Notes: generated from the sequence alone by a model not told the origin. A stretch of DNA of 64,000 nt from Deltaproteobacteria bacterium (GCA_034439895.1 JAWXBF010000003.1:6819-70818), one strand, 5' to 3'; shown: positions 11,296 to 64,000, counted from the stretch's first letter. Translations and numbers: made by a program.

Positions 11296-12063
11296 GTGGC
11301 AATATATCGCGGAGTGCCTGTTTTGCCCAAAAATCTAAAATTTCCGGTCGGCGCATCGGAGGTATCCGAGGTTCTCGCGGCCGAACAAACTGCGACGGCG
11401 GCTTTCGTGGCAGGCAAGGTTTTGCACGAACTGGGCAATCCTGCGGCAGCCATCAAGAGCAACCTCAGCTTCGTTTTGGATGTCTTGCCGGGTCTGGCGG
11501 TACAACTATCGGGTCCGGATCGGGAGACCTTCGAGGAAGCCGTTGCCGCGGTACGGGAAACCGAGCAGGCCAATGACGCGCTGGTCGCACGGCTTGAACA
11601 GCTGCGGGCTGCTGACACCAACTTCGCCGCAGGTCCCACGACAGACATCGTCGTTCTGGCGCAGCGTTTCGCCGCTCCGGCGGGCGGTCCCATGTTCAAC
11701 TGCACGCTGTCCAACGCCGAGCCAGGGCTCATGATCATGGGCACTCCGGCCGTCTGGTCGGTAGTTTTCTTTCGTGTTGCCGCGATCCTGAAGGGTGGGG
11801 ACACCTTGGGTGTTGGCGTTGAACTTGAACTGGCGCGGGTCGGGTCCGAGTTGGAGCTTCGGTTTTCAAGCGCAAGCTGGTCCACGATTGCGGGTACCCC
11901 CCTTGAAGGCGTGGCCCCCTTTGTCCTCGCCCGGAAAGTCCGTCACGCGCGCATCGACGAGACGGCCCTGGACGACTTGCTGGGGCGACTCCAGGGTCGG
12001 TTGCAGAGGTCAGGATCGAGCGGCGCGTTGTTGGGGTTGACGATAACTGTTCCGTTGAAATGA
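11296..12063 (+). CDS. histidine-kinase-like protein with a HisKA-type H-box but a degenerate or absent ATPase (N/D/G) domain
   Basis: The H-box GKVLHELGNPAAAIKSNLSF is from the same family as the neighbouring HKs. The C-terminal half has no recognisable N, D or G boxes. Its stop overlaps the start of the next gene (ATGA). Confidence 0.45.
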   Translation: MAIYRGVPVLPKNLKFPVGASEVSEVLAAEQTATAAFVAGKVLHELGNPAAAIKSNLSFVLDVLPGLAVQLSGPDRETFEEAVAAVRETEQANDALVARLEQLRAADTNFAAGPTTDIVVLAQRFAAPAGGPMFNCTLSNAEPGLMIMGTPAVWSVVFFRVAAILKGGDTLGVGVELELARVGSELELRFSSASWSTIAGTPLEGVAPFVLARKVRHARIDETALDDLLGRLQGRLQRSGSSGALLGLTITVPLK

Positions 12064-13331: not shown

Positions 13332-13335
13332 ACCC

Positions 13336-15345: not shown

Positions 15346-15355
15346 CGGGACGGTC

Positions 15356-17307: not shown

Positions 17308-17310
17308 CGA

Positions 17311-39322: not shown

Positions 39323-39339
39323 GACATCGACTTACCGAT

Positions 39340-39355
39340 GCAAGCGACGGGCCAG
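39340..39355 (-). promoter_or_regulatory. putative sigma-54 promoter (TGGCCC-N5-TTGCA) 18-20 bp upstream of fliM
   Basis: The minus strand reads cTGGCCCgtcgcTTGCa, one mismatch from the TGGCAC-N5-TTGCW consensus. It has the same geometry as the flgB promoter. Confidence 0.45.
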
Positions 39356-49083: not shown

Positions 49084-49100
49084 TGCGGAAAGGTTTTAAA

Positions 49101-49115
49101 GCAAGCGCCGTGCCA
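49101..49115 (-). promoter_or_regulatory. sigma-54 promoter, exact consensus TGGCAC-N5-TTGC, 18 bp upstream of flgB
   Basis: The minus strand reads tTGGCACggcgcTTGC. An exact match like this is expected ~0.1 times by chance in the window, and it sits at the head of the first flagellar operon, next to the sigma-54 activator gene. Confidence 0.5.
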
Positions 49116-49207: not shown

Positions 49208-50239
49208 TCAGACCGCGATCTTGCGAAGACGCTCGACGAGCGTGGTGCGGTTCAAACCCAGAAGGGCAGCCGCTTCTGTTCGGTTTCCAGCCGTTCGCTC
49301 AAGCGCGGTACGAATGAACTTTTCCTCGACCGTATCGACCGCCTTGCGGAGATTGAGGTCGTTGGCTGCCGCTTCGGTTGTATCGTTCGTCGGAAAAGCC
49401 GAGTTCACGACCGCCATCACCGCGCGAATCGGACGCGCCTTTTTCCCGGAGAAACGAATATCCGCGGCCGTCAAAACGCCGCCGCGCTTCATGACGATGC
49501 TGCGCTCAATGGTATGCGCAAGCTCACGGACGTTGCCGCGCCAGGCGTGTTCTTTCAGAACGCGTTCCGCAGAGGCATCGAGTCCGGTTACCGAGCGTTG
49601 CAACCGGGCATTGGTCTCGGTCAGAAAGCGATGCGCCATCGGTGCGATGTCGTCGGCGCGTTCGCGCAATGCCGGCAAGTCGATCTGGATCACCGTCAAA
49701 CGGTAATACAAGTCGGCACGAAAGGTTCCCTCGTCGACCATTTGTTCGAGGTCGCGATTCGTCGCTGCGATCACGCGCACGTCGATGCGGATCTCCTTGT
49801 CAGCGCCAACCGGCGTGAGCATTCCGTCCTGCAAAACGCGAAGCAATTTCGCTTGCGCCTGCAGCGGCAGTTCGCCGATCTCGTCTAGAAAGAGCGTGCC
49901 GCCATCGGCTGACGCCAGGCGTCCTTCGCGGGCGGCGATGGCGCCGGTGAAAGCACCCTTCGTGTGTCCGAAAAGTTCGGCCTCGATTAGGCTGTCTGGA
50001 ATCGCAGCACAATTCAGGGGGACGAGTGCGCGGTTGGCTCGAGGTGAAGCGCCGTGAATCATGCGCGCGACAAGCTCTTTGCCGGTGCCGGTTTCGCCGG
50101 TGACCAACACCGTGCAGTCGGTGTCCGCCACGTTGCGCGCTTCGGTCAGCGATTCCAGGATGCGGGGATCGTCGCCAATGAACTCGGGCGCGAAGGCGAT
50201 GCGCCAGGTTTCAAGGTCAGCATTTGGATCCAACTTCAT
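49208..50239 (-). CDS. sigma-54-dependent transcriptional activator (AAA+ central domain plus Fis-type HTH) lacking any N-terminal receiver or sensor domain; probable flagellar master regulator (FleQ/FlrA-like, PspF-type architecture)
   Basis: Walker A GETGTGKE, the GAFTGA sigma-54 contact motif, Walker B and arginine finger, and a C-terminal HTH (AAALLGLNRTTLVERLRK). The AAA+ domain starts at about residue 25. Confidence 0.9.
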   Translation of the reverse strand: MKLDPNADLETWRIAFAPEFIGDDPRILESLTEARNVADTDCTVLVTGETGTGKELVARMIHGASPRANRALVPLNCAAIPDSLIEAELFGHTKGAFTGAIAAREGRLASADGGTLFLDEIGELPLQAQAKLLRVLQDGMLTPVGADKEIRIDVRVIAATNRDLEQMVDEGTFRADLYYRLTVIQIDLPALRERADDIAPMAHRFLTETNARLQRSVTGLDASAERVLKEHAWRGNVRELAHTIERSIVMKRGGVLTAADIRFSGKKARPIRAVMAVVNSAFPTNDTTEAAANDLNLRKAVDTVEEKFIRTALERTAGNRTEAAALLGLNRTTLVERLRKIAV

Positions 50240-50667: not shown

Positions 50668-51240
50668 ATGGCGATAAACCGAGTCCCACTCCGAGAGCTG
50701 CGACCGCCCACCTCGGGGGGCGGCGCTGCGCAGTATCTCGCTGATTTCATTGAAGATATGCGCAAGGGCGAGGTTAGCTTTGCGTACCAGTACCGCTGGC
50801 CGGCCATGATTGTCACGGGCCTCACCGGCACCTTGAGCGATCTCGGCAGCAGGACCGGGACCCTCGTCACCGACGATCACAGCGCCGATGTGCGCCTCGC
50901 GAGTCTGCTCGTCGGACGGGTGTTCCTGTTGCGCAAGAACGCCAACGCCCAGCCCGGTCAAATTCGGATAGGGCGGGTTGCTGAAAACGACGTTCCCATT
51001 CCCGAGTTTTCGATATCAAAGCATCACTGTCTTTTACGACCTGCGCCAAATCGTACCACGATCGAAGACATGGGCTCGACCAACGGATCTCTCGTCAACG
51101 GAACGAAGCTGATTCCACACCAGCAGTATGCCGTCGAGGATGGCTCCGAAATCGTTCTCGGCCGTTTCGTCTTCCTCTTTTTCACCGCCCGTGGCTTCGT
51201 CGACTACGTCAAGCGTGAACTCGCCGACCTCTCGGCCTAG
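50668..51240 (+). CDS. FHA-domain protein
   Basis: A C-terminal FHA core (IRIGRVAENDVPIPEFSISKHHCLL...IEDMGSTNGSLVNGTKL...DGSEIVLG). Confidence 0.75.
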   Translation: MAINRVPLRELRPPTSGGGAAQYLADFIEDMRKGEVSFAYQYRWPAMIVTGLTGTLSDLGSRTGTLVTDDHSADVRLASLLVGRVFLLRKNANAQPGQIRIGRVAENDVPIPEFSISKHHCLLRPAPNRTTIEDMGSTNGSLVNGTKLIPHQQYAVEDGSEIVLGRFVFLFFTARGFVDYVKRELADLSA

Positions 51241-51251: not shown

Positions 51252-52166
51252 ATGGCGAACGACAAGCCAGTCAGTTTGGACGATGTCCTCGCTCGGGTCG
51301 ACAACCTACCGACGATCTCCCATGTTGCAATTCGCGTTGGTGAACTTGTCAACGATCCCAAAATGGGTGCACGCGAGATCTCGAAGGTCATGACTCAGGA
51401 TCCGAGCCTGAGTGCCAAGGTGCTCAAGCTTGTCAATTCGTCCTACTATGCCATTCCGGGCGGCGTGACCGACGTGGAACGCGCGATTTCGTTTATCGGA
51501 TTCAATGCGCTCTATCAGCTGGTTTTGACCGTTTCGGTGTTTCGCGCGTTGAAGACACCGGGCGGTGCCACGTTTGATGCTCGAGGCCTTTGGCTTCACT
51601 CGTTGGCCGTGGGATCGTGTTCGGAAGCACTCGCCCGGCGGATCGGGCATCCCGATCCCAGTACATGCTTCACGGCGGGACTGCTACATGACTTCGGAAA
51701 AATCGCGCTCGCGAAAGCCGAGGGAGAGCGTTTTGCGATGGCGCTCGACAGCGCCCGTCGCGATGGTGTGCCCATGCACATTGCCGAGGCCGAGGTGGGT
51801 TTGCCACCGCACGAGCGCGTGGGCAGTCGTCTCGCCAAGCGGTGGCGTTTTCCGGCGACGCTTCTGATACCGATCGAAAACCACCACAAGAGGCACCACC
51901 AGAGCGTACGTCGCGATCTCTCCACGCCACTGCTGGGTATGCTCGACATCGTCTCGCTTGCAGACGACGTGTGTCGTTTCCACGCGATTGGCGACAGCGG
52001 TTCACCCAAGCCCGAAGCACCGGATGCGGATGCGCTGGACGCTCTCGGCATGACAACGCTGTCGCTTGATGGCATCTACACGGACTTGATGCGCGTCCTC
52101 GAGAAATCGCGTACCTTCCTCGCCCTCATCGACGAGCCTACCGCCAAGTTGGACAAGCTCGGCTAG
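51252..52166 (+). CDS. HDOD-domain protein
   Basis: AKVLKLVNSSYYAIPGGVTDVERAISFIGFNAL...CFTAGLLHDFGKIAL. Confidence 0.8.
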   Translation: MANDKPVSLDDVLARVDNLPTISHVAIRVGELVNDPKMGAREISKVMTQDPSLSAKVLKLVNSSYYAIPGGVTDVERAISFIGFNALYQLVLTVSVFRALKTPGGATFDARGLWLHSLAVGSCSEALARRIGHPDPSTCFTAGLLHDFGKIALAKAEGERFAMALDSARRDGVPMHIAEAEVGLPPHERVGSRLAKRWRFPATLLIPIENHHKRHHQSVRRDLSTPLLGMLDIVSLADDVCRFHAIGDSGSPKPEAPDADALDALGMTTLSLDGIYTDLMRVLEKSRTFLALIDEPTAKLDKLG

Positions 52167-52181: not shown

Positions 52182-53642
52182 TTACTCGGGCTCGCTTGTC
52201 ATCGTTCGCGGCAAGGTCACGACAAAACACGCACCACGATTCGCATGTTTGGCGTACGAGATCGTGCCTTGATGGTCTTTCAGAATCTGCGCCGAGATCG
52301 CAAGGCCAAGACCGCAGCCAGTCCCCGCTGATTTTGAGGTGACATAGGGCTCGAAGAGGTGGTCGATGATGTCGGGAGCAACCCCGGGTCCGTCGTCGAT
52401 GACCTGGACCGATACTGTTTTTGCTGTGGTCTCCACGCTCACGTCGATGGTGCTTCCGTCTGGAGTCGCCTCCCCGGCGTTTCGTATGACGTTGACGAGA
52501 ACCTGCGTCAGCAGCGTCGCATCGCCAACGACCAGGGCTTTGGGCAACCGCGCTATCTGAATCGAGCGACGCTTGCGCGTGTGAATTCTGCAGATCGAGA
52601 CCGCCGAGGCCACCAAATCGGCAACACGACACTGCACCGGGTTTTCCTCACCGGAATGGATGTAGTTGCGCAACGAACGGTACAAGTTGACAAGGCGTTG
52701 CGAACTTTCGATTGCCCCGGCCATGCTTTCCTGCAAATCCGCGTCGCCACCACTTTCAATCGTGGGCGCAAGATCCCCAACGCAGAGTTGAACGTTCTGC
52801 ACGAGCGATGCCAGCTCGTGGGTAATGGAGGCCGTCATCGCACCCAGCGTCGCACGACGATTTAAACCGAAGAGCTGTGCGCGTGCCACTGGGTCGGCGA
52901 GCGCCAACTTGATCACGTTGGGGGCGCCGTTGTCTCCCGACCAGCGCGCCGCCCGTTGAATGAGAAACACGGTTATCGCGTGACTGGTGGCACCAAATCC
53001 ACTCGCCAGCGTTCTAACTTTGCCGTCACTTGTCATCGCCTGGTCAATCCGCCAGTCGGATCCATTTGATCCACCGCTCGGTTGCCCGAAGCCCGCGAGG
53101 GTATGGCTTTGTCCGTCCACGAGCATCGATACGGAAAGTCCGTGGACCTCTCGGATGGTGCGCGCTCGCTCAGCTAAAATTTTCGAGATCTCCACCAAGC
53201 CCTCGGCGCTCGCAAATTGATCGTCTATTCCCGCGGTATCGAGCAGGCTATCGAACGAGGCAGACATGTTGCGAATGCGCTCCCGGTGTTCCAGCGCCCT
53301 TCGCAAGGTCACATCGAGGGCATCGTGCCATGGTTTACCGATCTTGAAAGGTGCTCCGAATCCCATGGTGGCTTTGCGGGCATCTTCGTCGAGGTGACCC
53401 GTCAACATGATCCGGATCGTCTCGGGATTGCACCGACGGGCCGCGTCGAGAACCTGCACGCCGTTGATTTCCGGCATTCGCAAGTCGGCAACCACCGCGT
53501 CGTAAGGCGTTTGGCGCAAACGTTCAATCGCTTCTTTGCCGCTCGACACCGCCTCGACGTCAAAGCTCGCGGCGAGCTCATCGTGTATCGATTCCAGAAC
53601 GTCGATGTCATCGTCGACAACCAATATTCGTTCACGCGGCAT
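52182..53642 (-). CDS. hybrid response-regulator/histidine kinase (N-terminal REC, central GAF-like region, HisKA, HATPase)
   Basis: REC (ILVVDDDIDV, VVADLRMPEINGVQ, IMLTGH); H-box MTASITHELASLVQNV; N box VNVIRNAGEA; DDGPGV; GTGCGLGLAISAQILKDHQG. The start is taken at the internal M (MPRERIL), giving an 11-bp overlap with the upstream PAS-HK. Confidence 0.8.
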   Translation of the reverse strand: MPRERILVVDDDIDVLESIHDELAASFDVEAVSSGKEAIERLRQTPYDAVVADLRMPEINGVQVLDAARRCNPETIRIMLTGHLDEDARKATMGFGAPFKIGKPWHDALDVTLRRALEHRERIRNMSASFDSLLDTAGIDDQFASAEGLVEISKILAERARTIREVHGLSVSMLVDGQSHTLAGFGQPSGGSNGSDWRIDQAMTSDGKVRTLASGFGATSHAITVFLIQRAARWSGDNGAPNVIKLALADPVARAQLFGLNRRATLGAMTASITHELASLVQNVQLCVGDLAPTIESGGDADLQESMAGAIESSQRLVNLYRSLRNYIHSGEENPVQCRVADLVASAVSICRIHTRKRRSIQIARLPKALVVGDATLLTQVLVNVIRNAGEATPDGSTIDVSVETTAKTVSVQVIDDGPGVAPDIIDHLFEPYVTSKSAGTGCGLGLAISAQILKDHQGTISYAKHANRGACFVVTLPRTMTSEPE

Positions 53643-54876
53643 GACTCTCCTTGGAGGGCAGTTGGATCTCGAAGCGGGCCCCGGTTTCACTCGGACAAAA
53701 TCTCACGTCGCCACCAGACTGACGCGCGAGGCGTCTTGCGGTGACGAGGCCAAGACCACTGCCGTCGGGCCGGGTTGTCACAAACGGCTCGAACAGTGCC
53801 TTGCGACGGTCGGGCGCAACGCCTTCCCCGCTGTCCTGCAGGGCCACCGTGATGCCAGCGTCCGACGCCGTTGCCTCGATTCGCAACTGGCCACCGGTTG
53901 GCATCGCGAGAACCGCGTTGTCGATGAGGTTCCACAAAATATGCTGGAAATCAGCGGCGGATGCCCATGCCGACGTTCCGTCCGCAATGTTCGTGGCGAC
54001 CTTGATGCCGTTCAAGCGCGGCTCGAAGAGTGCAATCGCAATGTCAATCTCCTTTCGAACGGCCAGAGTTTCCGGCTCCGACGCGATGTTGCCGCTGCGG
54101 TGGGCGCGCCTGACCGCCGCAATGATGGTCTCCATCCTCGAAGCGGTATCGGACCCCCGTTTCAAAAAACGTGAAGCGCCATCTTTGAGCTCGTCCGAGC
54201 CCTTTTCGCCAATCAATCGATCCAACTGTCGGTGTGCGCTGACGAGCGCCGCAAGCGGATTGTTCAGGCTGTGGGCGATGCCCGCCGACAGTTCGCCGAT
54301 GAGCGCGCGCCGACTGGCCTGTGACAGGCGTGTGCCCATCACCCTGAGTTCGTGGTTTTTCTCGGCCAGTTCACGGTTTCGCATTTCGAGATCGGATACC
54401 GCTTTTTCCAGCTCCGAATGAGCCGAAAAAAGGGCGAGATGCTTTGAGATGAGTTCACGTTCGAGCATCTGCCGCTCGGTGATGTCGCGGGCGATGCATG
54501 CGGCCAGCGGCCCCGTGTTACTGTGTTCGATATGCGCGACGGTCAAGGCAACCGTCACGGGGTAACCATCGATTCGAGCGATGGCTATTTCGTCGTGCAA
54601 GCCCTGACGTTCAATCACCCGTGTGGCACGTTCTCCAGCATCGCAATCATCACTCGGTAGAAACAAGCTGGCCGCAGGTTGGCCCACCAAGACAGCCATT
54701 GAGCTGCCAGTCAGATCCTCCAGCCGACTGTTGGCGCTAACGATGCGCATATCGGAACGCGATACGGCGAACGCAGCTTCGGACGTATGCTCGAAGAGCA
54801 ATCCGAAGATTTTCCTGTCGATATCGCGGATCGGCGCCGATGCGTGCGTTTGCATCCAGATTCTTGCTTCGGCCAT
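53632..54876 (-). CDS. PAS-domain sensor histidine kinase (cytoplasmic)
   Basis: An N-terminal PAS region, H-box SAGIAHSLNNPLAAL, N box WNLIDNAV, DSGEGV and GSGLGLVTARRLARQSGG. Confidence 0.8.
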   Translation of the reverse strand: MAEARIWMQTHASAPIRDIDRKIFGLLFEHTSEAAFAVSRSDMRIVSANSRLEDLTGSSMAVLVGQPAASLFLPSDDCDAGERATRVIERQGLHDEIAIARIDGYPVTVALTVAHIEHSNTGPLAACIARDITERQMLERELISKHLALFSAHSELEKAVSDLEMRNRELAEKNHELRVMGTRLSQASRRALIGELSAGIAHSLNNPLAALVSAHRQLDRLIGEKGSDELKDGASRFLKRGSDTASRMETIIAAVRRAHRSGNIASEPETLAVRKEIDIAIALFEPRLNGIKVATNIADGTSAWASAADFQHILWNLIDNAVLAMPTGGQLRIEATASDAGITVALQDSGEGVAPDRRKALFEPFVTTRPDGSGLGLVTARRLARQSGGDVRFCPSETGARFEIQLPSKESHAA

Positions 54877-54970
54877 GTATGGCGTTTCTGGAGGCCCGAA
54901 ATCTAGACCGTCGCCCCGGACGGGTGACAGCCGAAAGTCCCTTCAGTAACAAGCCCGGCAAGACGATTCC

Positions 54971-56545
54971 TTGGGGACGGTGAGGCGTAGTTTAGGCGAA
55001 GGAGAACCCGAAGAGACCACACAGACCGATGGTCCGGTCCTGGAGCGTGGGCGTTTGCGTTCCGATCGGCCCCGGCTGGTGGTCATCGGGGGGATTGCAA
55101 AGGGCCGACAATTTGCCATTGCCGACGACGGTGCCACGATCGGGCGTTCCTCAGAAGCGACGGTAACGATCGAGGATCGTCGGCTGTCACGGGTGCACGC
55201 CCGCATCGTGACGACGCGGCCCGGCACCTGGATTCTCGAAGACCTCGATAGTAAAAACGGCACGATCGTCAACGGTGAAGCCGTCAAACGCAAGACGCTT
55301 TCCTATGGTGACGAGATTCGCATCGGCGACTCGGCCTTGATCTTCACGCACCATAATCCTGTCGAAGAACAGATCTTTCAGCGCGAGCGGATGGAACTTT
55401 TGGGTCGTCTGGGTGCGGGCGTTGCGCATGACTTCAACAATTTGCTCAGTGCTGCACGTGCAAGCATCGAGTTTCTTGATTCGCTTCCGCCAAACTCCCG
55501 GATCGACGAACCCGATATCCTTGAATGCCGTCGCGACGCGCTGAGCGCGCTCTCGCAAGCCACGACCCTGTCTGCGCGTTTGCTTGGGATGAGCCGGCAA
55601 CAGGCCTATGTTCTCGGTCGCGTGGATGTTGCGGATCTTTGTCGAGATGCGGTCGATCTGTTAAAGCGCACCGTCACGCGATCGATCGCGATCGATTTGC
55701 AGACAGAGCCGAATCTGTTCACGATGGGTGATCGGGGTCAGTTGCATCAAGTGATCATGAATCTGGGCGTCAATGCGCGTGACGCCATGCCGGCGGGGGG
55801 CAAGTTGACGGTTTCTTGTCGACGCGGTAGCGCGCTTGACTATCCGGTTTCCGGTCGCACCGACGGTGACGTTGTGATTCTCAGCGTTTCAGATACTGGC
55901 CAGGGTATGGACGAGGAGACCCGGGAAAATGCCTTTGATCCCTTCTTCTCGACGAAAACCGACCGCGGCGGTACGGGACTTGGCCTCGCCACCGTGCTTG
56001 AGATCGTAAAGTACCACGGCGGTTCGATTGACCTACAATCCGAGCTTGCCAAAGGAACAATGTTTCGCATCTTCCTACCGGCGCCACAAGATGTCGTCGC
56101 TACGGGTCGTGACACGTATGCCGAGTTGCCGTCCCTTGATCGGGCTCGCAGCATCAGCTCGGAATCCATGGTGCGGACGGCTCTTGTGGTGGACGACAAT
56201 CCCGTGATGCGCAGAAGCCTCGCTCGCCTCTTGAAGGCGCAGGGTTTTGAGGTGACGCTTGCCACCAACGGGCAGGAAGGTGTCGAGAGGTTCAGTGAAA
56301 GTCGTCCCGACTTCGTGCTACTCGATTTCGATCTGCCAATTCTGTCGGGTGCCAAGGTTTTTGAACGGCTGCGAACGCTCGATCCCGATATTCCAATCAT
56401 CCTCATGTCGGGTCACGCGACCGCGACGATCGAGCGCATGTCGCAGTGGTTCGGTGATCCGCCACTGTTTCTGCAAAAGCCTTATGGCGCACAGGATCTG
56501 CGCAATGCCATCAGCGAAGTTCTTACCCGAAAAGGTCGGGGATGA
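54971..56545 (+). CDS. FHA-domain / histidine kinase / receiver hybrid (FHA-HisKA-HATPase-REC)
   Basis: FHA (ATIGRSSEATVTIEDRRLSRVHARI...EDLDSKNGTIVNGE...YGDEIRIG); H-box GAGVAHDFNNLLSA; N box MNLGVNARDA; DTGQGM; GGTGLGLATVLEIVKYHGG; C-terminal REC (ALVVDDNPVM, VLLDFDLPILSG, IILMSGH). Confidence 0.85.
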   Translation: MGTVRRSLGEGEPEETTQTDGPVLERGRLRSDRPRLVVIGGIAKGRQFAIADDGATIGRSSEATVTIEDRRLSRVHARIVTTRPGTWILEDLDSKNGTIVNGEAVKRKTLSYGDEIRIGDSALIFTHHNPVEEQIFQRERMELLGRLGAGVAHDFNNLLSAARASIEFLDSLPPNSRIDEPDILECRRDALSALSQATTLSARLLGMSRQQAYVLGRVDVADLCRDAVDLLKRTVTRSIAIDLQTEPNLFTMGDRGQLHQVIMNLGVNARDAMPAGGKLTVSCRRGSALDYPVSGRTDGDVVILSVSDTGQGMDEETRENAFDPFFSTKTDRGGTGLGLATVLEIVKYHGGSIDLQSELAKGTMFRIFLPAPQDVVATGRDTYAELPSLDRARSISSESMVRTALVVDDNPVMRRSLARLLKAQGFEVTLATNGQEGVERFSESRPDFVLLDFDLPILSGAKVFERLRTLDPDIPIILMSGHATATIERMSQWFGDPPLFLQKPYGAQDLRNAISEVLTRKGRG

Positions 56546-58599
56546 CTGCACCCACTGGCAGCGGCGGAATGCAACCTGACGCCGGACCCGCAGGGCTTTT
56601 TGGCAGTCAGGTTGGGCCGTATCGAATCCGTTCGTTGCTAGGCGAAGGCGGCATGGGGGTTGTGTATCTCGCCGAGCACGAGCTGATCGGTCGAAAAGCG
56701 GCGATCAAGATGTTGGCGGCGGACGTGGCCGGCGATTCAGAGGCCGTGTCACGTTTCTTCCTGGAAGCGCGCACGGTCAATCAGATAAGGCACCCCAATA
56801 TCGTTGATGTGACGGATCTCGGACATCACGACACTCAGCCGTACATCGTGATGGAGTATCTCGAGGGCGAAACATTGGCCGATCGCCTGAAGCGGGCGGG
56901 GCCGATGGATTCAACCGTCGCATTGAAAGTCACGCGACAGGTGGCGTCTGCCCTTGGTGCGGTCCATGAGCATGGACTGGTTCATCGCGATCTCAAGCCC
57001 GCCAATATTTTCATATGCGCCCATCCGGATTACCCCGACTTCACGAAGGTTCTTGATTTCGGGATCGCGAAGCTTGTCTCGGTCCATGAAGACGTTGGCC
57101 ACAAGACCCGCGCCGGTGCGTTGTTGGGAACACCGCAATACATGTCACCCGAGCAATGTTTGGGTCAAAGGGATATTGATCCGCGCAGTGACATCTACTC
57201 GCTTGGTGTTGTTTTGTACGCCATGCTGACGGGACGGTTGCCGTTCGCCAATCGTCCGTTTGGCCAGTTGATTGTGGCGCATGTGATGGAGGTACCTGCG
57301 TCACCGCATCAAGTGAATTCGGGGGTTGCCCCCGTCTTGAGTGCACTCGTGATGAAAATGCTCGAAAAGCGACGCGAAGAACGGCCTGCGAACATGTTCG
57401 TCTTGCGTGATTCGATTGATTCCTTGCTGGGCATAGAACACGAAATTCCGGGCGTCCCTATCATGTCGCTCGGCAGCGATGGCACCGGTCCCATTGGTCT
57501 TGCGGCGGCCGCCTTTGCCGATGAAGGCCATACCGCCGAAATGCGGGCGCGGTTGCTGGCAGTCAATCTCGAAGCCACCGAGACCTCCGCAGGAAGTTTC
57601 CGAGACGAAGATTTCGATTCCGATACTTCTGGCTCGCCCGGTACACCTGAACCGACTTCGGCCGTAGTCGGTGGTGCCAGCCGTGCACTTCCCGATCACG
57701 CGACGCTTGTGGAACGGGTTGGTGACTTCATCGACGAACGTCTCGCCGTCGAAAAGATACCCTTGCCGGTGCTGTCGCGGGCATCGGCGCAATGCCTCGA
57801 ACTGATGCGCTTGCCGGGCTTTTCGTTTGCGGATCTTTCCGAGGCCATGATGCGTGAACCGAACCTCGCTCGCCGAATCGTTGCACAAGCGAATCGAGTG
57901 GTGGGTAGCGCATCCACTCAGCGCGTGGTCGGCATCGCGCAGGCGGTTCGTCGGATTGGCGCTGCCGGCCTGCAGCGGACTCTGGTCGAAATGGCAGCTC
58001 GTCCGGCGTTCTGTCCACCGAATTCTCGTTTTGCCCAGGCACTCAAGCGTCCCTGGCACCATGCAATTGCAACCGCGCTGCTGGCGGAACGCATAGGCTC
58101 AAATGCGCAACTGCCGCAGCTTCAACCCATCACGGAATCGCTCTACATCGCGGGCCTCTTGCACTCGATCGGGCGTTGCGTCCTGACGAATTTCCTCTTG
58201 ACCAGTGAACGCCGGATCGCCCGACGCTATGATCTACCCCGTTTACCCTGGGCAGCCTTGCTCGACGCTGCGGATGCCGCGTCGATTCGCGTTTCGGTTG
58301 CCGTCGCACGGGGTTGGAACTTGCCCGAGGACGTCGTGGGTATGTTGGCATCGTGTGGCCTGGTTGGAAGTCGAACCGACAATGGCGCCGCGGCTCCTGC
58401 GGCTGCGGTGGTACTCCGCCTCGCACACGGGATTGCACTTCGCGAAGGGTTCGTGCTTCGTGACGAGGACAAATCCGGTGTATCGAACGACATTCGCGCG
58501 AGCCGAATGCGTCTTGGCCTCGATGAATCCGTGATCGATCGAATGCTTTTCGATCTCCAGAATCACGTGGCTCGACTCGCACGCACGCGCGGCGAGTGA
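56542..58599 (+). CDS. Ser/Thr protein kinase (Hanks type) fused to a C-terminal HDOD domain
   Basis: Kinase motifs (GEGGMGVVYLAEH, AIKML, HRDLKPANIF, DFGIAK, TPQYMSPEQ). A long linker leads to an HDOD domain (IVAQANRVVGSAS...IAGLLHSIGRCVL). The start overlaps the stop of the previous gene (ATGA). Confidence 0.85.
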   Translation: MTAPTGSGGMQPDAGPAGLFGSQVGPYRIRSLLGEGGMGVVYLAEHELIGRKAAIKMLAADVAGDSEAVSRFFLEARTVNQIRHPNIVDVTDLGHHDTQPYIVMEYLEGETLADRLKRAGPMDSTVALKVTRQVASALGAVHEHGLVHRDLKPANIFICAHPDYPDFTKVLDFGIAKLVSVHEDVGHKTRAGALLGTPQYMSPEQCLGQRDIDPRSDIYSLGVVLYAMLTGRLPFANRPFGQLIVAHVMEVPASPHQVNSGVAPVLSALVMKMLEKRREERPANMFVLRDSIDSLLGIEHEIPGVPIMSLGSDGTGPIGLAAAAFADEGHTAEMRARLLAVNLEATETSAGSFRDEDFDSDTSGSPGTPEPTSAVVGGASRALPDHATLVERVGDFIDERLAVEKIPLPVLSRASAQCLELMRLPGFSFADLSEAMMREPNLARRIVAQANRVVGSASTQRVVGIAQAVRRIGAAGLQRTLVEMAARPAFCPPNSRFAQALKRPWHHAIATALLAERIGSNAQLPQLQPITESLYIAGLLHSIGRCVLTNFLLTSERRIARRYDLPRLPWAALLDAADAASIRVSVAVARGWNLPEDVVGMLASCGLVGSRTDNGAAAPAAAVVLRLAHGIALREGFVLRDEDKSGVSNDIRASRMRLGLDESVIDRMLFDLQNHVARLARTRGE

Positions 58600-58616: not shown

Positions 58617-59117
58617 CTACTGAACGACGAACTCAGCGAAGTACAGATGGCTGATGGCCCCGCCACCAAGTGCCTTGTCAATGCGGGCAAGGATCGCTTC
58701 GCCAATCGTATTTTTGCCGCTCTCGCCGAGGGTATCGGCGACCGCCAAGCTTGACAGGTATCGCAATATGTCATCCCGGATGGCGACTTTTTTGGTTTCC
58801 AATTTGGCCTTTGCCCCGTCGTTTCGCAGCTCCAGATCAAACTTCGCCTTGAGATAGCGGGCGCGCCCCTGTTCGTTCAGGTTCACGACGAAGGGATCAA
58901 GGGTAACCATGGGCTTGATCTCGGATTCAGGCCCGGGCCCGTGGTCCTTGGGCAACGATTTCTCCACCTCGGTCACCTTGTGTGAAATCCCCATCGTCTG
59001 AACCACGATGAAAGCCGAAACTGCGATGTTTACGATGCCCAAAATCATCCCAAGTTTGGAGCCACCTGCTTTGGGGACGGCGTCTGATGGTGTTTCTGCT
59101 TTTTTTTCTTCGGACAT
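58617..59117 (-). CDS. fliL: flagellar basal-body-associated protein FliL
   Basis: A single N-terminal TM and a FliL core (TLDPFVVNLNEQGRARYLKAKFDLEL...ILRYLSS). Confidence 0.8.
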   Translation of the reverse strand: MSEEKKAETPSDAVPKAGGSKLGMILGIVNIAVSAFIVVQTMGISHKVTEVEKSLPKDHGPGPESEIKPMVTLDPFVVNLNEQGRARYLKAKFDLELRNDGAKAKLETKKVAIRDDILRYLSSLAVADTLGESGKNTIGEAILARIDKALGGGAISHLYFAEFVVQ

Positions 59118-59175: not shown

Positions 59176-60690
59176 CTATCCGGCTGCACTGATTGGCGCC
59201 ACAATCGGATCGGCCGCGCAAACGCGATTGCGGCCAGACTCCTTTGCCCGGTACATCGCGGCGTCGGCTGCGGCAATCAGGGCCGGAATCGAAACCGTTT
59301 GACCTGCGCCGACCGTGGCGCAACCGAAGGATGCCGTCAAGGGAATGGGCGTTCCGTCTTGCGTTTGAACGGTGAGCTGCGAAACCCGCTCTCGTACCCG
59401 TTCTGCGACGATGAGGGCGCCCGGCGTCGGCGTTTCGGGCAACACCACCACGAACTCTTCACCGCCCCAGCGGGCCGGGAGATCGCGCGGGCGGAAGTTC
59501 TTCAAGAGAAGTCCACCGATCGCTTTCAGGACCGCATCGCCGACGAGGTGTCCGTGTTTGTCGTTGACCTTTTTGAAGTGATCCACGTCCACCATGATGA
59601 TGCTCAGCGGCGTTTTGGTGATGCGCGCTTTGGTCAGCTCGTGTTCAATGAACGTCTCGAACCGATTGCGATTGGCCAACCCAGTCAAGAGATCAGTTAC
59701 CGACTTTCCCTCGGCTTTTTCAGCCCGATCGGTCAGCGAGAGCATCGTTTCGGTCATCTGGATTTCGGTCGAAACAGCAGATAGCAGGAGGGCCTCGCGG
59801 GCTTCTTCCAGGATCTCGTCGATGGTTTCTTGCGAGTCCATCGGTGCTTCGAGCAGCGTGAACAACTCGCCCATTGTGTCGTGTACCCTGGCGAGCAACT
59901 CGTCAAACTTTTCGTCCGTCAAGTTGAGAATCTTTGAGGCGAACGCCCGTGCGTGCCGTGTGGGCAACGCGCGATCAGGCGCCAGCCAGATGTCGGTGAC
60001 GTGGTTTGCGGTCGCGACGATGCGCGAGAGCGTCACCACGCTGGGCTCCGTCTTGTCGTCCGTGATCCCGAACTTGTGACTGTGGGCAATGATCATTGCG
60101 AACTGGGCAGGCAGTCTCCATTTTTCAGCGAGCCAGGCGCCCACTTCGGCGTGATCCGAGCCGAATAACTCCGTTTCCTGCGCGCTCAATTCGCCATGGT
60201 TGTGAATGGATTTCTCAAGGATCGCGCCGTACGTCGGCTCAATCGTTGCCAGGGTCAAGATGCCGATATCCTGCATCAATCCCGCCAAGAAGGCCTCTTC
60301 CAGATCGCGAACTCCGACCAGGGCAGCGAGGTGCCGCGAAACGAGCCCCGACAAAGCAGATCGTTTCCAGTACGCGCGAAACCAGGGCGTTTGAGCTGCC
60401 TTGACCGTCCGTGCAAGCGTAAATGACAGCGCCATGGCGCGCAAGGAGTTGAGCCCCAGCATCGCAACGGCGTGTGATACGGTTGTGACCTCGCGGCGAA
60501 CGCCTAGCATGGGCGAGTTGGCCATCTTGAGAACCTTGGCGGACAGGGCGGCGTCCGTCGTGATGGTGGACACCACGTCGCGAACGTTGGGTTCCGCTTT
60601 TTGGCATTGCTCGAGCACCTTCATGGTGACCGCGGGCAACGTGGGCATACTCTTGGCCTGGGTGAGTCTCGTTTGTAGTGCCGGATCCAT
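59176..60690 (-). CDS. HDOD-GGDEF protein (diguanylate cyclase with an N-terminal HDOD domain)
   Basis: HDOD (AKVLKMANSPMLGVRREVTTVSHAVAMLG...AGLMQDIG). GGDEF with an I-site (RPRD-LPARW-GGEEF) and the preceding DVDHFKKVND. Confidence 0.85.
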   Translation of the reverse strand: MDPALQTRLTQAKSMPTLPAVTMKVLEQCQKAEPNVRDVVSTITTDAALSAKVLKMANSPMLGVRREVTTVSHAVAMLGLNSLRAMALSFTLARTVKAAQTPWFRAYWKRSALSGLVSRHLAALVGVRDLEEAFLAGLMQDIGILTLATIEPTYGAILEKSIHNHGELSAQETELFGSDHAEVGAWLAEKWRLPAQFAMIIAHSHKFGITDDKTEPSVVTLSRIVATANHVTDIWLAPDRALPTRHARAFASKILNLTDEKFDELLARVHDTMGELFTLLEAPMDSQETIDEILEEAREALLLSAVSTEIQMTETMLSLTDRAEKAEGKSVTDLLTGLANRNRFETFIEHELTKARITKTPLSIIMVDVDHFKKVNDKHGHLVGDAVLKAIGGLLLKNFRPRDLPARWGGEEFVVVLPETPTPGALIVAERVRERVSQLTVQTQDGTPIPLTASFGCATVGAGQTVSIPALIAAADAAMYRAKESGRNRVCAADPIVAPISAAG

Positions 60691-60769: not shown

Positions 60770-62128
60770 TTACCCGTGATCGTGGTTTTTGCGGACATTT
60801 CCCGACGGCGGCGCCGGCGCAACGATCCCGTCATTCTTCATGCGCACGGGATCGGCCAGCGTGGCGACCGAACCTGGCGGATGCGGGTACCACCCGGCTT
60901 TGTCGGCGGCGTCTGCCCGCTCTCGCACCTTCAAGAGCGTGAACATGCCACCCATATCTATGTAGCTGAAGGGTCCCGCTCCACCCCGCATTGGCAAGCT
61001 GTTTGGTGGAATGTCCATTTCCATCTCGGCCATGTTGCCCATTCCGGTTGTGCCCATCGTCATGTACCGGGGCACCACACGGTCCATGCGAGCGTCGAGT
61101 TTCGCGGTGTTCGCCCCGAGCATCGGCGGCAACCCGTGTCCCATCTGTGTCATCACGTGATGGGTCATGTGGCAATGCATCGCCCAGTCGCCGAGTTCCT
61201 CGGGCACAAATTCGATCACGCGTGTGCTACCGGTGGGAATCAGAACGGTGGTGTCCGGATGTTGGGCCGATTCGGGAATGTATCCGCCGTCGGTCGCCGT
61301 CGTCTTGAACGACAACCCGTGCAAGTGCACCGGATGATGGTCCATCGGACTCAGGTTGCCGAATCGAATGCGAACCCGTTCGCCCCGTCCAACCACAAGC
61401 GGTGCGGTCCCCGGGAAAGACTTGCTGTTGAAGGTCAGGACGTTGAAGTCTTTCATTTCGCTCGGATTCGGACGGCGCGCCCCGACGTCGACGCGAAACT
61501 CGTGCGTCATGAGCACAAAGTCTCGATCAACCCGCGGTCCGCGCGGCCGGCGCGGATGAACGATGAGCATCCCCGTCATCCCCAGCGCGATCTGGGTCAT
61601 CTCATCGAAGTGCGGATGGTACATGTACGTTCCGGGGTGTCGCACCGTGAATTCGTACATGTAGGTTTCACCCGGTTCGATGGGCGACTGGGTCAGCCCC
61701 GCCACGCCATCCATGCCGTTGGGTAGTACGATTCCGTGCCAGTGTACCGACGTGGGTTCCGGCAAACGGTTGCTGACATAAAGGCGGAGTCTGTCGCCCT
61801 CGACCGCCTCGATCGTTGGGCCGGGCGTGCTGCCATTGTATCCCCAGCACAGAGCCCGAAGACCCGGTGCAAATTCGTGGTCGACTTCCTCGGCCACGAG
61901 GTGACCCACCTTGACGCCATTGACGACCCGCAGGGGTAGGGTAGCCCCATTGGGCGTCTGCACGGCGATCTGTCCGCCGGGCGCGACGATGGGCGCCTTC
62001 TCTGAAACGTGTGACGGTTCAAGCGGCGCCGCGGCCGCAATCGCCTTGGCCTCGGCTGGCGAAACCCGGGTGACGATGGCACCACACACGGCAGAGCCAC
62101 CCATGCCGAAAAAGTTGCGTCGATCCAT
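60770..62128 (-). CDS. TAT-exported multicopper oxidase (CopA/CueO-like)
   Basis: Twin-arginine signal RRNFFG; copper-site motifs HWHG, HPHF, HPVHLHG and HCHMTHH. The start is taken at MDRRNFF and overlaps the stop of the upstream efflux-factor gene. Confidence 0.85.
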   Translation of the reverse strand: MDRRNFFGMGGSAVCGAIVTRVSPAEAKAIAAAAPLEPSHVSEKAPIVAPGGQIAVQTPNGATLPLRVVNGVKVGHLVAEEVDHEFAPGLRALCWGYNGSTPGPTIEAVEGDRLRLYVSNRLPEPTSVHWHGIVLPNGMDGVAGLTQSPIEPGETYMYEFTVRHPGTYMYHPHFDEMTQIALGMTGMLIVHPRRPRGPRVDRDFVLMTHEFRVDVGARRPNPSEMKDFNVLTFNSKSFPGTAPLVVGRGERVRIRFGNLSPMDHHPVHLHGLSFKTTATDGGYIPESAQHPDTTVLIPTGSTRVIEFVPEELGDWAMHCHMTHHVMTQMGHGLPPMLGANTAKLDARMDRVVPRYMTMGTTGMGNMAEMEMDIPPNSLPMRGGAGPFSYIDMGGMFTLLKVRERADAADKAGWYPHPPGSVATLADPVRMKNDGIVAPAPPSGNVRKNHDHG

Positions 62129-62129
62129 C

Positions 62130-63620: not shown

Positions 63621-64000
63621 GACACTCGTATTATCTAGGCCCATACGGGAAGATCGTGACAGAAAAATTCAGCAAACAGTGGATTCCGAGATCGAGCAGC
63701 TGAGTCCCGACACCTGTTCGATGAGCGAGTTGCTCGGCAGCGCCACCAACACCTGATATGAATATCGGGTGTTTCGAGTTGCAGCCGTTCTTGGCAAAAG
63801 TTGGCGGTCGGCCGGCGTGTTCGCGCTTTCGATTCTCGGCGTCCTTTGGTTCCATCATATGGTGGCTGCGCGCGAGCCGACGACAACCTGGTTGCTGTGG
63901 GATCTGCTGCGGCTGTGGTCCTGGCAAGTGGTGCTTTCAAGCGCCTGTCTTTGTGCCGGCTACCGTGTTCTGAGTTGGCTAGACGATCCTGCTCGACCGG

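Follow-up and report, generated by a model that had tools for sequence, protein, structure and literature searches.

A Ser/Thr kinase-HDOD fusion family of uncultured Polyangia adjoins flagellar-gene regulators in several of its branches

The locus

The window analysed here is a stretch of 64,000 nucleotides from a deltaproteobacterial assembly (GCA_034439895.1, JAWXBF010000003.1:6819-70818), in which a gene encoding a Hanks-type kinase fused to an HDOD domain adjoins a complete flagellar cluster. The features on which the following description is based are listed below in window coordinates.

49100..49115, minus strand: sigma54 (-24/-12) promoter with the perfect consensus TGGCACGGCGCTTGCT (motif scan)
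49208..50239, minus strand: sigma54 enhancer-binding protein, 343 aa (Sigma54_activat 21-186, HTH_8 302-340)
50668..51240, plus strand: FHA-only protein, 190 aa (FHA, E 6.9e-19)
51252..52166, plus strand: standalone HDOD protein, 304 aa (HDOD, E 1.1e-54; HD, E 7.5e-9)
52182..53690, minus strand: REC-HK gene (Pfam)
53632..54876, minus strand: PAS-HK gene (Pfam)
54971..56545, plus strand: FHA-histidine kinase-receiver hybrid, FHA-HK-REC (Pfam FHA at 56-119, HATPase_c, Response_reg)
56542..58599, plus strand: kinase-HDOD fusion gene (685-aa ORF with ATG start; Pfam Pkinase and HDOD)
56620..57399, plus strand: Hanks-type kinase domain, residues 27-286 (Pkinase, E 8.3e-51)
57430..57696, plus strand: disordered linker, about residues 297-385 (AF2 pLDDT below 50 for 299-380)
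57697..58590, plus strand: HDOD-fold domain, structural residues about 386-683 (Pfam HDOD at 408-602)
58617..59117, minus strand: fliL (FliL, E 1.4e-21)
59176..60690, minus strand: HDOD-GGDEF protein, putative diguanylate cyclase (HDOD, E 7.4e-52; GGDEF, E 4.8e-47)

The reading frame of the kinase-HDOD gene is uninterrupted in the window. Five contigs encode the 685-aa protein with 100% identity, and no fewer than four separate samples are represented among them (four of the five contigs represent four separate samples from JGI, ENA and Logan). Because the identical protein recurs on five contigs in a continuous frame, the fusion did not arise from misassembly or a frameshift, and it is confirmed as a genuine intact fusion gene. 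HMM searches place the Pkinase domain at residues 27-286 and the HDOD domain at 408-602, and the Pfam search of the whole protein gives nothing beyond these two, which leaves HDOD as the sole C-terminal domain, in agreement with an earlier note made from the window sequence. Together with the ORF and the five contigs, this Pfam result refutes the idea of an artefact or of a C-terminus other than HDOD, to which we assign a practically negligible chance. The maximum 19-residue hydropathy of the protein is 1.5 and falls within the folded HDOD domain; the hydropathy scan predicts no transmembrane helix and the protein is therefore predicted to be soluble.

The start codon of the kinase-HDOD gene overlaps the stop codon of the FHA-HK-REC gene by 4 bp (ATG and TGA in the sequence ATGA). 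Gene order and overlap are kept in relatives at 93% and 56% identity, and the FHA-HK-REC ortholog with its overlap at 59% and 56%. The overlap noted earlier is thus present, and translational coupling of the two genes is what we infer from it. The phospho-threonine-binding residues (GR, SRVH and NGT) are present in the translated FHA domain of the hybrid.

Upstream of this pair, the REC-HK and PAS-HK genes are divergent from the FHA-HK-REC/kinase operon, and both are kept in the relatives at 93% and 81% identity. The 304-aa standalone HDOD protein has all six metal ligands (H, HD, H, HH) in an alignment with 3hc1. The FHA-only gene of the window is, by alignment and synteny, the ortholog of the FHA gene which is located between the kinase-HDOD gene and a sigma54 activator gene in other clades. 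Alignment of the FHA-only orthologs reveals an N-terminal region with a conserved Gly-Thr and intact GR, S..H and NG(T/S) motifs. The 343-aa sigma54 activator has the GAFTGA motif and is devoid of a receiver or any other N-terminal sensory domain. The promoter TGGCACGGCGCTTGCT, with the activator gene on one side and the flgB-flgC-fliE-fliF operon on the other, is the sole perfect sigma54 match in the window, where 0.05 would be expected by chance. On the other side, fliL is convergent with the kinase-HDOD gene at 17 bp from its stop codon, and the HDOD-GGDEF gene that follows is kept in the 93% and 81% relatives. No gene for a PP2C-type phosphatase was seen near the kinase-HDOD gene.

Kinase, linker and HDOD domain

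The kinase domain is complete, as had been proposed, with PF00069 scoring 173.3 bits (cut-off 31.7) over profile positions 1-256 of 263. All motifs could be located: GEGGMG (34-39), AIK with K56, E75, HRDLKPAN (148-155), DFG (172-174) and SPE (202-204). Residues K56, E75, H148/R149/D150, N155 and D172, together with the activation-segment threonines T189 and T197, do not vary among the 46 relatives aligned, on account of which the domain is predicted to be catalytically competent. A family-specific insert, HPDYPDF, precedes the DFG motif. The closest solved structure is that of Mycobacterium tuberculosis PknB (38% identity, target-normalised TM-score up to 0.91), and the PknB-GarA complex 6i2p is among the structure matches. 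Assignment as a PASTA kinase (PknB/Stk1) was rejected: NF033483 (PknB_PASTA) gives 284.5 bits against a cut-off of 450 with the match confined to the kinase domain, and the protein has neither a transmembrane segment nor a PASTA match.

Many PADLOC models of the PD-T4-6 type also match the protein (E down to 2e-89), as do the NCBIfam models MADS6 and PglW, which could suggest an anti-phage defence kinase. However, the available PD-T4-6 models, made for a single-gene defence kinase, describe the kinase domain, and all of the matches stay within this generic domain (about residues 20-300, up to 323 in the longest case). The NCBIfam scores fall far short of the cut-offs (157 versus 460, for example), and the neighbouring genes give no PADLOC match except weak receiver-domain matches for FHA-HK-REC. 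The position of the gene in a conserved chromosomal arrangement of regulatory and flagellar genes also speaks against a defence role, which we regard as very improbable.

The linker between the Pfam boundaries is 121 aa long (287-407), somewhat shorter than the roughly 130 aa estimated earlier. Predicted disorder covers 82 of its residues (299-380), while a helix at 386-402 is part of the HDOD fold. In the window protein the linker is rich in Ala, Gly, Ser, Thr, Pro and acidic residues; across the family its length ranges from 25 to 142 aa and its composition includes 19% Pro, 14.5% Ala, 12% Thr and 10% Ser. Several of the linker Thr and Ser residues might be phosphorylation sites. The full-length AF2 model (pTM 0.50) gives no confident contact between kinase and HDOD domain.

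PF08668 matches the HDOD domain over profile positions 1-190 of 196 (E 4e-20); its 72.6 bits exceed the cut-off of 22.9 and are far below the scores of the neighbouring HDOD proteins (185 and 176 bits). The region has an all-helical HDOD fold and is nearer to solved HDOD structures (among which are 3i7a, 3m1t, 3hc1 and 3mem) than to other folds of the HD superfamily. The combination of HD dyad, GYP motif and HD-GYP-type fold that would indicate an HD-GYP c-di-GMP phosphodiesterase was not found, and this candidate was rejected. A complete metal site of the 3HC1 type consists of five His and one Asp in the order H, HD, H, HH (PMC12075610). The corresponding residues of the window protein are H, H-S, S and C-G. 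It keeps two of the six ligands and has lost the dyad Asp and three more of the His. The last two His ligands are missing in all 156 other family sequences compared, and none of the family members compared has the full six-ligand site. Accordingly, a metal-dependent HD phosphohydrolase or a metal-binding HDOD of the 3HC1 type was rejected as a candidate. Since most ligands are lost, the domain is degenerate and a role as an enzyme or as a metal-dependent sensor, one way of taking the earlier proposal of a sensor, is unlikely. At the same time the HDOD domains of the family have conserved residues of their own, for example C418, R471, E556 and W592. We tentatively take the domain to be a regulatory or docking module, perhaps one that binds a ligand. 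There is an analogy in SadB, whose HDOD domain has an incomplete ligand set and acts as an adaptor without ligand binding (PMC12075610), and which has been reported to behave as a dimer (PMC6543031).

It is possible, though doubtful, that the HDOD domain is the sensor suggested earlier and that it responds to a small molecule such as c-di-GMP or a related nucleotide, acting as an allosteric switch through which a second messenger would be converted into Ser/Thr phosphorylation. Enzymes of c-di-GMP metabolism are plentiful at the locus (the HDOD-GGDEF gene is 0.6 kb away, and REC-EAL and REC-GGDEF-EAL genes are situated beyond the flagellar cluster), a REC-EAL gene is also found near one of the type B loci, and Pseudomonas fluorescens SadB has been reported to bind c-di-GMP (PMC6543031). 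The first His and the HD dyad are present in most members of the family, and a conserved pocket is typical for HDOD domains. However, P. aeruginosa SadB does not bind c-di-GMP and mutations in its pocket are without effect (PMC12075610), the window protein has lost the ligands named above, and no HDOD domain has an established ligand.

The family and its neighbourhoods

We define the family by the signature H-x-D-Y-P-D-F-x-K-x-L-D-F-G, a disordered Pro/Thr/Ser-rich linker and a C-terminal HDOD domain devoid of the HH ligands. The window protein carries the signature as HPDYPDFTKVLDFG, scores 353 bits against the HDOD profile of the family and is placed in a clade of its own, with at most 47% identity to other clades. 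The Pkinase and HDOD architecture is present in all of the best 120 database relatives, and HDOD is found in 75 of 75 metagenomic ORFs having the signature HPDYPDF.K.LDFG and an intact C-terminus; the fusion is an obligate and ancient architecture. The survey reveals a large family from uncultured Polyangia (Myxococcota). Among the 150 representatives (at 50% identity) that are closest to the HDOD part, 41 or more are kinase fusions. Many members also bear the automatic IMG name 'serine/threonine protein kinase/HD-like signal output (HDOD) protein', and neither result agrees with the earlier view of the fusion as unusual. A paper describing the architecture was not found in the literature searched. 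In contig L185, from a relative at 81% identity, two in-frame stop codons are present in the kinase N-lobe and the gene is therefore broken in that one contig.

In several branches of the family the kinase-HDOD gene adjoins regulators of flagellar genes, and neighbourhood patterns follow the clades obtained by clustering of kinase similarity. The recurrent partners are a small FHA protein, a receiver-less sigma54 activator, histidine kinases, standalone HDOD proteins and a sigma54-driven flagellar operon. Downstream sequence of 2 kb or more is available for 42 loci; in 23 of these a receiver-less activator gene follows on the same strand within 3 kb, and in 11 of the 42 an FHA-only gene is located between the two; among 58 loci with enough upstream sequence, a histidine kinase is encoded immediately upstream in 24 and standalone HDOD genes are found upstream in 25; at least one partner (activator, FHA-only, histidine kinase or standalone HDOD) is present in 26 of the 31 loci with both flanks, all of these counts being drawn from loci that are not independent (77 full-length sequences form 50 clusters at 90% and 9 at 55% identity). 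In both loci whose coordinates were read, the FHA gene shares a single base with the activator gene. Three clades, mutually 38-41% identical, have the common partner set in differing arrangements beside a sigma54-driven flagellar operon. Sigma54 sites with one mismatch occur in 15 other loci, of type A and type B, at the same relative position as in the window, and over 350 kb there are 17 sites on the strand of the kinase gene versus 4 on the opposite strand. In the window the FHA-only and activator genes are about 5-6 kb from the kinase gene, an arrangement unlike that of the type A and type B loci.

Three or four clades have none of these neighbours. They include L006/L007, where the nearest relatives of the window protein outside its own clade (47% identity) are found. 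A dedication to flagella is thus not a property of the entire family. This raises the possibility that the fusion is a general-purpose paralog of the myxobacterial kinase repertoire, placed near flagellar genes incidentally, with HDOD serving merely in dimerisation or stability. The very large kinase repertoires (an atlas of bacterial Ser/Thr kinases lists two Myxococcota families with 12,000 sequences) and the deviating arrangement in the window clade are in line with such a reading. The partner set common to three independent clades and the conserved 4-bp overlap with an FHA-containing histidine kinase are not, and we consider it unlikely.

The proximity of fliL could be taken to mean that HDOD brings the kinase to the motor or basal body of the flagellum, for instance by way of FliL, so that motor or export components would be phosphorylated. 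The order FHA-HK-REC, kinase-HDOD and convergent fliL is indeed kept in the window clade down to 56% identity, next to the flagellar cluster. However, fliL is a neighbour in only 2 of 100 tabulated loci, both of the window clade (as are two more members fetched later that have it too), and this adjacency is absent from other clades. Across clades the partners are cytoplasmic regulators (sigma54 activator, FHA protein, histidine kinases and HDOD proteins), the kinase-HDOD protein has no membrane anchor, and convergent genes do not have a common transcript. Docking at the motor, as suggested in the earlier note, is thus decidedly unlikely, because what recurs across clades is the sigma54 activator, the FHA protein and the sigma54 promoter before flgB. 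The link to flagella itself is borne out by gene neighbourhood, mostly on the side of transcriptional control. The EAL-like partner suggested in the same note finds no counterpart, as no EAL gene is conserved beside the family and the HDOD-related neighbours that recur are standalone HDOD proteins.

A proposed role and its relation to known systems

From the observed domains, catalytic residues, metal-ligand loss, obligate fusion, clade-specific synteny and sigma54 promoter, we tentatively propose, with a probability that we put just short of even, that the kinase-HDOD protein is the kinase arm of a phospho-threonine/FHA pathway controlling sigma54-dependent expression of flagellar genes, with HDOD as its regulatory or docking end. 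The protein-protein and phosphorylation steps and the direction of information flow are our interpretation, and the functional links between the components rest on gene neighbourhood. The kinase would autophosphorylate its activation loop and the Thr-rich linker and would phosphorylate partner proteins, and the resulting phospho-threonines might be read by the FHA-HK-REC hybrid and the small FHA-only protein. The output would be the activity of the receiver-less sigma54 activator, situated before the perfect sigma54 promoter driving flgB-flgC-fliE-fliF. In this model HDOD would in all likelihood either pair with the standalone HDOD proteins encoded nearby, in which the metal site is intact, or bind a small ligand, and either could set the activity of the kinase or its choice of partner. 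Sensing of a small molecule is compatible with the proposed pathway and differs from it only in what HDOD binds. We know of no direct precedent for an HDOD-HDOD interaction that could be cited, the sole support being the report of a SadB dimer.

A more specific version of this proposal is speculative and we hold it with low confidence. It states that the top of the flagellar gene hierarchy in flagellated, uncultured Polyangia may be run by eukaryotic-like Ser/Thr phosphorylation instead of a two-component system. The kinase-HDOD protein would phosphorylate a GarA-like FHA adaptor or be read by it, the adaptor would gate the receiver-less sigma54 activator of the flgB-fliF operon, and control of the pseudo-enzymatic HDOD domain would come from its heterodimers with the co-encoded, metal-binding standalone HDOD sensors. 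If true, HDOD, which has lacked a known function for some 20 years, would gain a defined biochemical role as part of a kinase-regulating pair of sensor and pseudo-sensor.

Among known systems, the mycobacterial set used for comparison (PknB/PknG with GarA, OdhI and FhaA) provides a parallel. Like PknB, the fusion protein is an RD kinase with conserved activation-loop threonines, and FHA proteins with intact phospho-threonine-binding residues are co-encoded. The FHA-only protein resembles GarA and OdhI in its N-terminal extension with a conserved Thr. Unlike PknB, the fusion protein has no transmembrane helix and no PASTA domains, and a C-terminal HDOD domain takes the place of the extracellular sensor. 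It also belongs to Myxococcota and not Actinobacteria, and its presumed output is a sigma54 activator in place of metabolic enzymes or cell-wall machinery.

Comparison with other HDOD proteins places the fusion apart from SadB (YbaK-HDOD, Pseudomonas) and GsmR (REC-HDOD, Xanthomonas), which function in motility or biofilm formation. Its HDOD domain is joined to a Hanks kinase and not to YbaK, REC, GGDEF or EAL, is C-terminal behind a long disordered linker and has conserved residues of its own.

FHA-containing sigma54 enhancer-binding proteins of Myxococcus xanthus were reportedly described by Jelsbak, Givskov and Kaiser in 2005. A logic leading from Ser/Thr kinase through FHA to sigma54 activator has been established or hypothesised in M. 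xanthus, and the system proposed here has this logic and the phylum in common with it. However, FHA is here a separate small protein, encoded by a gene overlapping or adjoining that of the receiver-less activator, and not fused to it. The kinase moreover bears HDOD, and the regulated operon is flagellar (flgB-fliF) and not developmental.

Examples of flagellar sigma54 activators that are receiver-less or regulated in trans are FleQ with FleN (Pseudomonas), FleQ with FleT (Rhodobacter sphaeroides) and FlbD with FliX (Caulobacter). Control of such activators by FHA proteins or Ser/Thr kinases was not found described in the literature searched. As in FleQ- and FlbD-type systems, a sigma54 activator heads a flagellar basal-body operon and control would come from a partner protein in place of a cognate histidine kinase. 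Unlike in those systems, the candidate controllers are an FHA protein and a Ser/Thr kinase.

The kinase-HDOD gene and its signalling island

A complete flagellar cluster, with genes for FliF, FliG, FliI, FlgE, FlhB, FlhA, FlhF, FlgI, FlgK and FliD together with those for FlgB, FlgC and FliE, is bordered by a signalling island of 10 kb. The kinase-HDOD gene, which encodes a Ser/Thr kinase with a C-terminal HDOD domain, is part of this island.

Genes of the signalling island (window coordinates and strand)
49208-50239 (-): sigma54 activator, 343 aa, AAA+ from residue 21, without receiver or other sensory domain
50668-51240 (+): FHA-only protein, 190 aa
51252-52166 (+): standalone HDOD protein, ligands intact
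52182-53690 and 53632-54876 (-): REC-HK and PAS-HK
54971-56545 (+): FHA-HK-REC
56542..58599 (+): kinase-HDOD, a single uninterrupted ORF with an ATG start, 685 aa
58617-59117 (-): fliL, convergent with kinase-HDOD and 17 bp away
59176-60690 (-): HDOD-GGDEF

The overlap with the upstream gene described in the earlier note is present: the ATG of kinase-HDOD shares ATGA with the preceding TGA stop, and the upstream gene encodes an FHA-HATPase-receiver hybrid histidine kinase. REC-HK and PAS-HK overlap by 59 bp in a mechanical ORF list and by 11 bp with the later REC-HK start of the gene caller (486 aa). These two genes probably form a single operon, transcribed divergently from that of FHA-HK-REC and kinase-HDOD. 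Past the 3' end of the window, about 9 kb downstream of kinase-HDOD, there is a gene for a second FHA-HATPase-REC hybrid kinase (source contig L001, 21111-22058), and at least three FHA-domain proteins are found near kinase-HDOD in this lineage.

The only perfect sigma54 promoter consensus of the 64-kb window, TGGCACGGCGCTTGCT at 49100-49115 (-), is located between the receiver-less activator gene and flgB, where 0.05 such sites in the window are expected by chance. Nothing convincing as a sigma54 promoter for the FHA-HK-REC/kinase operon was found in the intergenic region 54877-54970. A one-mismatch site at 39339-39354 (-) lies within the flagellar cluster, 17 bp upstream of an ORF starting at 39322.

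The far side of the flagellar cluster (12060-18537) carries further c-di-GMP and HDOD signalling genes, listed here with a pair of HATPase proteins.

Further signalling genes (window coordinates and strand where noted)
8887-10521 and 15356-16273: two HATPase proteins
12060-13331 (+): REC-EAL
13336-15345 (+): REC-GGDEF-EAL
17311-18537 (-): fourth HDOD protein, 408 aa

Adjoining the signalling island at 60770-63644 (-) are a multicopper oxidase (Cu-oxidase_2/_3) and an outer-membrane efflux protein (OEP), next to which a copper-type P-type ATPase is found in a relative at 93% identity; the pair is probably a copper-resistance unit unrelated to kinase-HDOD. For two ORFs of 334 and 363 aa at 1739-3859 (+), Pfam gave nothing at an E-value of 1e-5 or below.

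Domain structure of kinase-HDOD

Pfam assigns residues 27-286 to a protein kinase domain (E 8.3e-51) and residues 408-602 to HDOD (PF08668; E 4e-20, 72.6 bits vs a gathering score of 22.9). Further Pfam matches are weaker, belong to kinase-like families (PK_Tyr_Ser-Thr, ABC1, APH, Kdo) and all fall inside residues 30-283. The kinase motifs that had been read by eye were all located, namely GEGGMG at 34, AIK with K56, HRDLKPAN at 148, DFG at 172 and SPE at 202. In an alignment of 46 relatives these motifs are invariant, as are the alphaC glutamate E75 and the activation-segment residues T189 and T197. Since the catalytic motifs are complete and invariant, the kinase should be active, as predicted by sequence. 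In structure the domain matches M. tuberculosis PknB best, and the PknB-GarA complex 6i2p is among these matches. A PASTA kinase was ruled out by an NCBIfam score of 284 bits against a cut-off of 450 and by the lack of a transmembrane helix and of PASTA domains, and a defence-system kinase is very unlikely, as the PADLOC and NCBIfam matches are to generic kinase-domain models only. With no 19-residue stretch of transmembrane-like hydropathy (the maximum, 1.5, lies inside the helical HDOD), the protein is predicted to be cytoplasmic.

A linker between the two domains is present as proposed earlier, although the suggested length of about 130 aa is slightly too long, with 121 residues between the Pfam boundaries. 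In the AlphaFold2 model, 82 of its residues (299-380) are disordered (pLDDT below 50) and the remainder forms a helix packing into the HDOD fold. The full-length model (pTM 0.50) gives no confident relative placement of the kinase and HDOD domains. An HPDYPDF insert between the catalytic loop and DFG (57022-57042 in the window; residues 161-167) is conserved in all family members and may be a communication surface with the HDOD.

The assignment of the C-terminal domain as HDOD held in every test applied, and by profile as well as by fold it is a true member of PF08668. The solved HDOD structure 3HC1 binds two iron ions via five histidines and one aspartate, whereas SadB, which is without three of these histidines, acts as a proteolysis adaptor without ligand binding (PMC12075610). 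Mapping to 3HC1 reveals WHHA, LLHSIG, SIRVS and ASCG at the ligand positions of kinase-HDOD, so that two of six ligands are kept. All six are kept in the standalone HDOD protein at 51252-52166 (WLHS, LLHDFG, HERVG, NHHK). Among 156 other non-redundant family sequences, the first histidine is retained in 88%, the histidine of the HD dyad in 72%, its aspartate in 81% and the third histidine in 49%; the last two histidine ligands are retained in none (0/156). A binuclear site of the 3HC1 type would thus be impossible in any compared family member, and the loss is most advanced in the lineage of the window. The kinase's HDOD lacks the metal-ligand set that defines an HD phosphohydrolase, and with this incomplete set phosphohydrolase activity is unlikely; a docking, regulatory or pseudo-enzyme role is the economical reading. 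The window encodes four HDOD proteins, whose His/Asp ligand state differs in each where checked.

Family extent and clade-wise synteny

An assembly or frameshift artefact is ruled out, as the identical 685-aa protein is present on five contigs, of which the four listed come from separate samples (JGI, ENA, Logan). The best 120 matches among 5.8 billion proteins carry both Pkinase and HDOD without exception, down to 36% identity, and are 567-739 aa long save one with a truncated kinase domain. The earlier note regarded the fusion as unusual. It is instead common in metagenomes and already labelled by annotation pipelines; many relatives appear in JGI as 'serine/threonine protein kinase/HD-like signal output (HDOD) protein'. 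The kinase-HDOD family is large and conserved; it has been annotated automatically but not studied, and the bare architecture is not a new category.

A hand-made DNA pattern for the family kinase signature (H-P-D-Y-P-D-F-x-K-x-L-D-F-G) retrieved 96 stretches from a metagenome collection. The family HDOD is present in 75 of 75 signature-bearing ORFs with their C-terminus inside the contig, and the 12 signature ORFs without it are every one cut by a contig end. By these intact ORFs, the fusion is obligate and old. Family-type HDOD was absent from 80 ordinary kinases of many phyla in a genome-contig scan with the generic motifs HRD[LI]KP..NI and K[VL]LDFGIAK. A search of 1.84 billion representatives with the HDOD part alone gave 3,523 matches; kinase fusions make up at least 41 of the 150 closest 50%-identity representatives, and most of the others are standalone HDOD proteins (about 290 aa), with a few REC-HDOD proteins. 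The NCBI names of a handful of MAG proteins are the only organism labels that members bear, and they read Polyangia, Myxococcales or 'Deltaproteobacteria'.

One relative at 81% identity (L185 3707-5764; JGI Ga0169931_10015039) has two in-frame stops in the kinase N-lobe, a TGA at the position of window Ser70 and a TAG at that of Gln98. The gene caller splits it into products of 69 and 582 aa, with the HDOD part open; the stops reflect either a pseudogene in this strain or sequencing errors.

Of the 96 signature loci, 95 entered a comparison of neighbourhoods, which with four relatives found by protein identity and the lineage of the window itself covered 100 loci. Their ORFs were searched with the proteins of the window and the family HDOD profile. 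The threshold was at least 35 bits, with the window's own proteins as queries (so that divergent partners are under-counted), and the loci are not independent, since the 77 full-length sequences group into 50 clusters at 90% identity and into only 9 at 55%. Downstream sequence of 2 kb or more is available for 42 loci; in 23 of them a sigma54 activator without a receiver lies within 3 kb on the strand of kinase-HDOD, and in 11 an FHA-only gene stands between the two. Upstream sequence of 2 kb or more is available for 58 loci; in 24 of them a histidine kinase gene is located directly upstream, and 25 carry between one and three standalone HDOD genes on the other strand. One or more of these partners occur in 26 of the 31 loci with both flanks. 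The patterns track the clades obtained by average-linkage clustering of the kinase sequences.

Neighbourhood patterns by clade
Clade 8, type A: three standalone HDOD genes and HK-REC on the opposite strand; kinase-HDOD, FHA, activator, sigma54-like promoter and flgB...fliF in this order
Clade 7, type B: PAS-HK, kinase-HDOD, activator, (gene), second activator, promoter and flagellar operon in this order
Clade 5, type C: standalone HDOD gene divergent from the adjoining kinase-HDOD gene

The activators of types A and B are without a sensory domain. A single base is shared by the FHA and activator genes in the two type A loci for which coordinates were read. In type B (L098, L106, L135, L152, L158, L162 and L187), two receiver-less sigma54 activators stand in tandem downstream of kinase-HDOD. 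They are separated by an uncharacterised ORF, of about 450 aa where checked, and the second activator gene has a sigma54-like promoter at its 3' end. The tandem pair recalls two-activator flagellar systems such as FleQ/FleT.

No perfect sigma54 consensus was found in family loci outside the clade of the window. A relaxed search, with one mismatch permitted and the GG and GC cores required, revealed sites just upstream of the flagellar operon in 15 type A or B loci. Over 350 kb, 17 sigma54 sites are on the kinase strand against 4 on the opposite strand.

The window protein stands in a clade of its own, with no more than 47% identity to the others. Its arrangement, FHA-HK-REC followed with a 4-bp overlap by kinase-HDOD and then by convergent fliL, is kept in relatives at 93%, 81% and 56% identity. 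Docking at the motor through FliL, in line with the flagellar-motor docking suggested in the earlier note, is nevertheless improbable, as the FliL link is supported in the window's own clade only.

Three clades that are mutually only 38-41% identical share the partner set beside a sigma54-driven flagellar operon in differing arrangements, which argues for a functional module of kinase-HDOD and its partners rather than chance adjacency. Clades 2, 3, 4 and 6 showed none of these partners in the neighbour search of the 100 loci. These clades would fit an incidental paralog lying beside flagellar genes, a reading we consider unlikely, if somewhat less so than motor docking. The fusion alone matters less than was assumed earlier, and the conserved module is the main point of interest.

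A possible phosphothreonine pathway and its relation to known systems

The canonical phosphothreonine-binding residues are kept both in the hybrid (GR...SRVH...NGT) and in the small FHA protein (GR...SKHH...NGS). Alignment places the small FHA proteins of 17 loci in one orthologous family, to which those of window 50668-51240 (+), L008, L090, L110, L117, L123, L127, L137, L169, L177, L183 and others belong. Its members have in common about 60-70 conserved aa at the N-terminus, with the consensus YLA.F..EYRRLG.QSF.RAY.WPVLIV.G.GG...GTM.A, and a conserved Gly-Thr lies in this region. This layout, an N-terminal threonine region followed by FHA, resembles that of GarA/OdhI, in which a phosphorylated N-terminal threonine folds back onto the protein's own FHA domain.

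Taken together, kinase-HDOD, the FHA proteins, the receiver-less activator and the sigma54 promoter at flgB suggest that Ser/Thr phosphorylation controls flagellar genes in a Myxococcota lineage. Our model, held tentatively at somewhat short of even chances and with its functional links drawn from synteny, is that kinase-HDOD is the kinase arm of a phosphothreonine/FHA pathway controlling flagellar gene expression, with HDOD as its input end. The kinase would autophosphorylate its activation loop and perhaps also the Thr/Ser-rich linker; FHA-HK-REC and the FHA-only protein would read these marks or be substrates themselves. The FHA-only protein may then gate the receiver-less activator in trans, by which transcription of the flagellar basal-body operon would be controlled. 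Input could reach the HDOD end through pairing with the intact standalone HDOD proteins or through binding of a small molecule. The main rival, in which HDOD is a nucleotide sensor, differs from this pathway only in what HDOD binds and appears distinctly less probable, though ahead of the incidental paralog.

The signalling domain HDOD is widespread and, to our knowledge, no biochemical function has been established for it; Myxococcota are better known for gliding motility and very large kinase repertoires. The function of HDOD becomes tractable in a family where it is obligately fused to an easily assayed kinase and where genes for intact standalone HDOD proteins lie alongside. The module thus makes two questions testable, namely what HDOD does and whether Ser/Thr phosphorylation acts in flagellar control of these Myxococcota.

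No published mention of the kinase-HDOD architecture was found in the literature searched; the accessible part of the 2025 Atlas of bacterial STKs contains no mention of HDOD, and the architecture is not among the family-defining ones there. A survey of c-di-GMP proteins counted HDOD with EAL in 128 proteins and with GGDEF in 28 (PMC2952852). The flagella-linked HDOD proteins SadB and GsmR carry YbaK or REC as partner domain (PMC6543031), whereas kinase-HDOD carries a kinase instead. In how it works, kinase-HDOD may be likened to the PknB/FHA system. It may also be likened to the logic proposed for Myxococcus development, in which a Ser/Thr kinase acts through FHA on a sigma54 activator, and our model, if true, would extend that logic to flagellar regulation.
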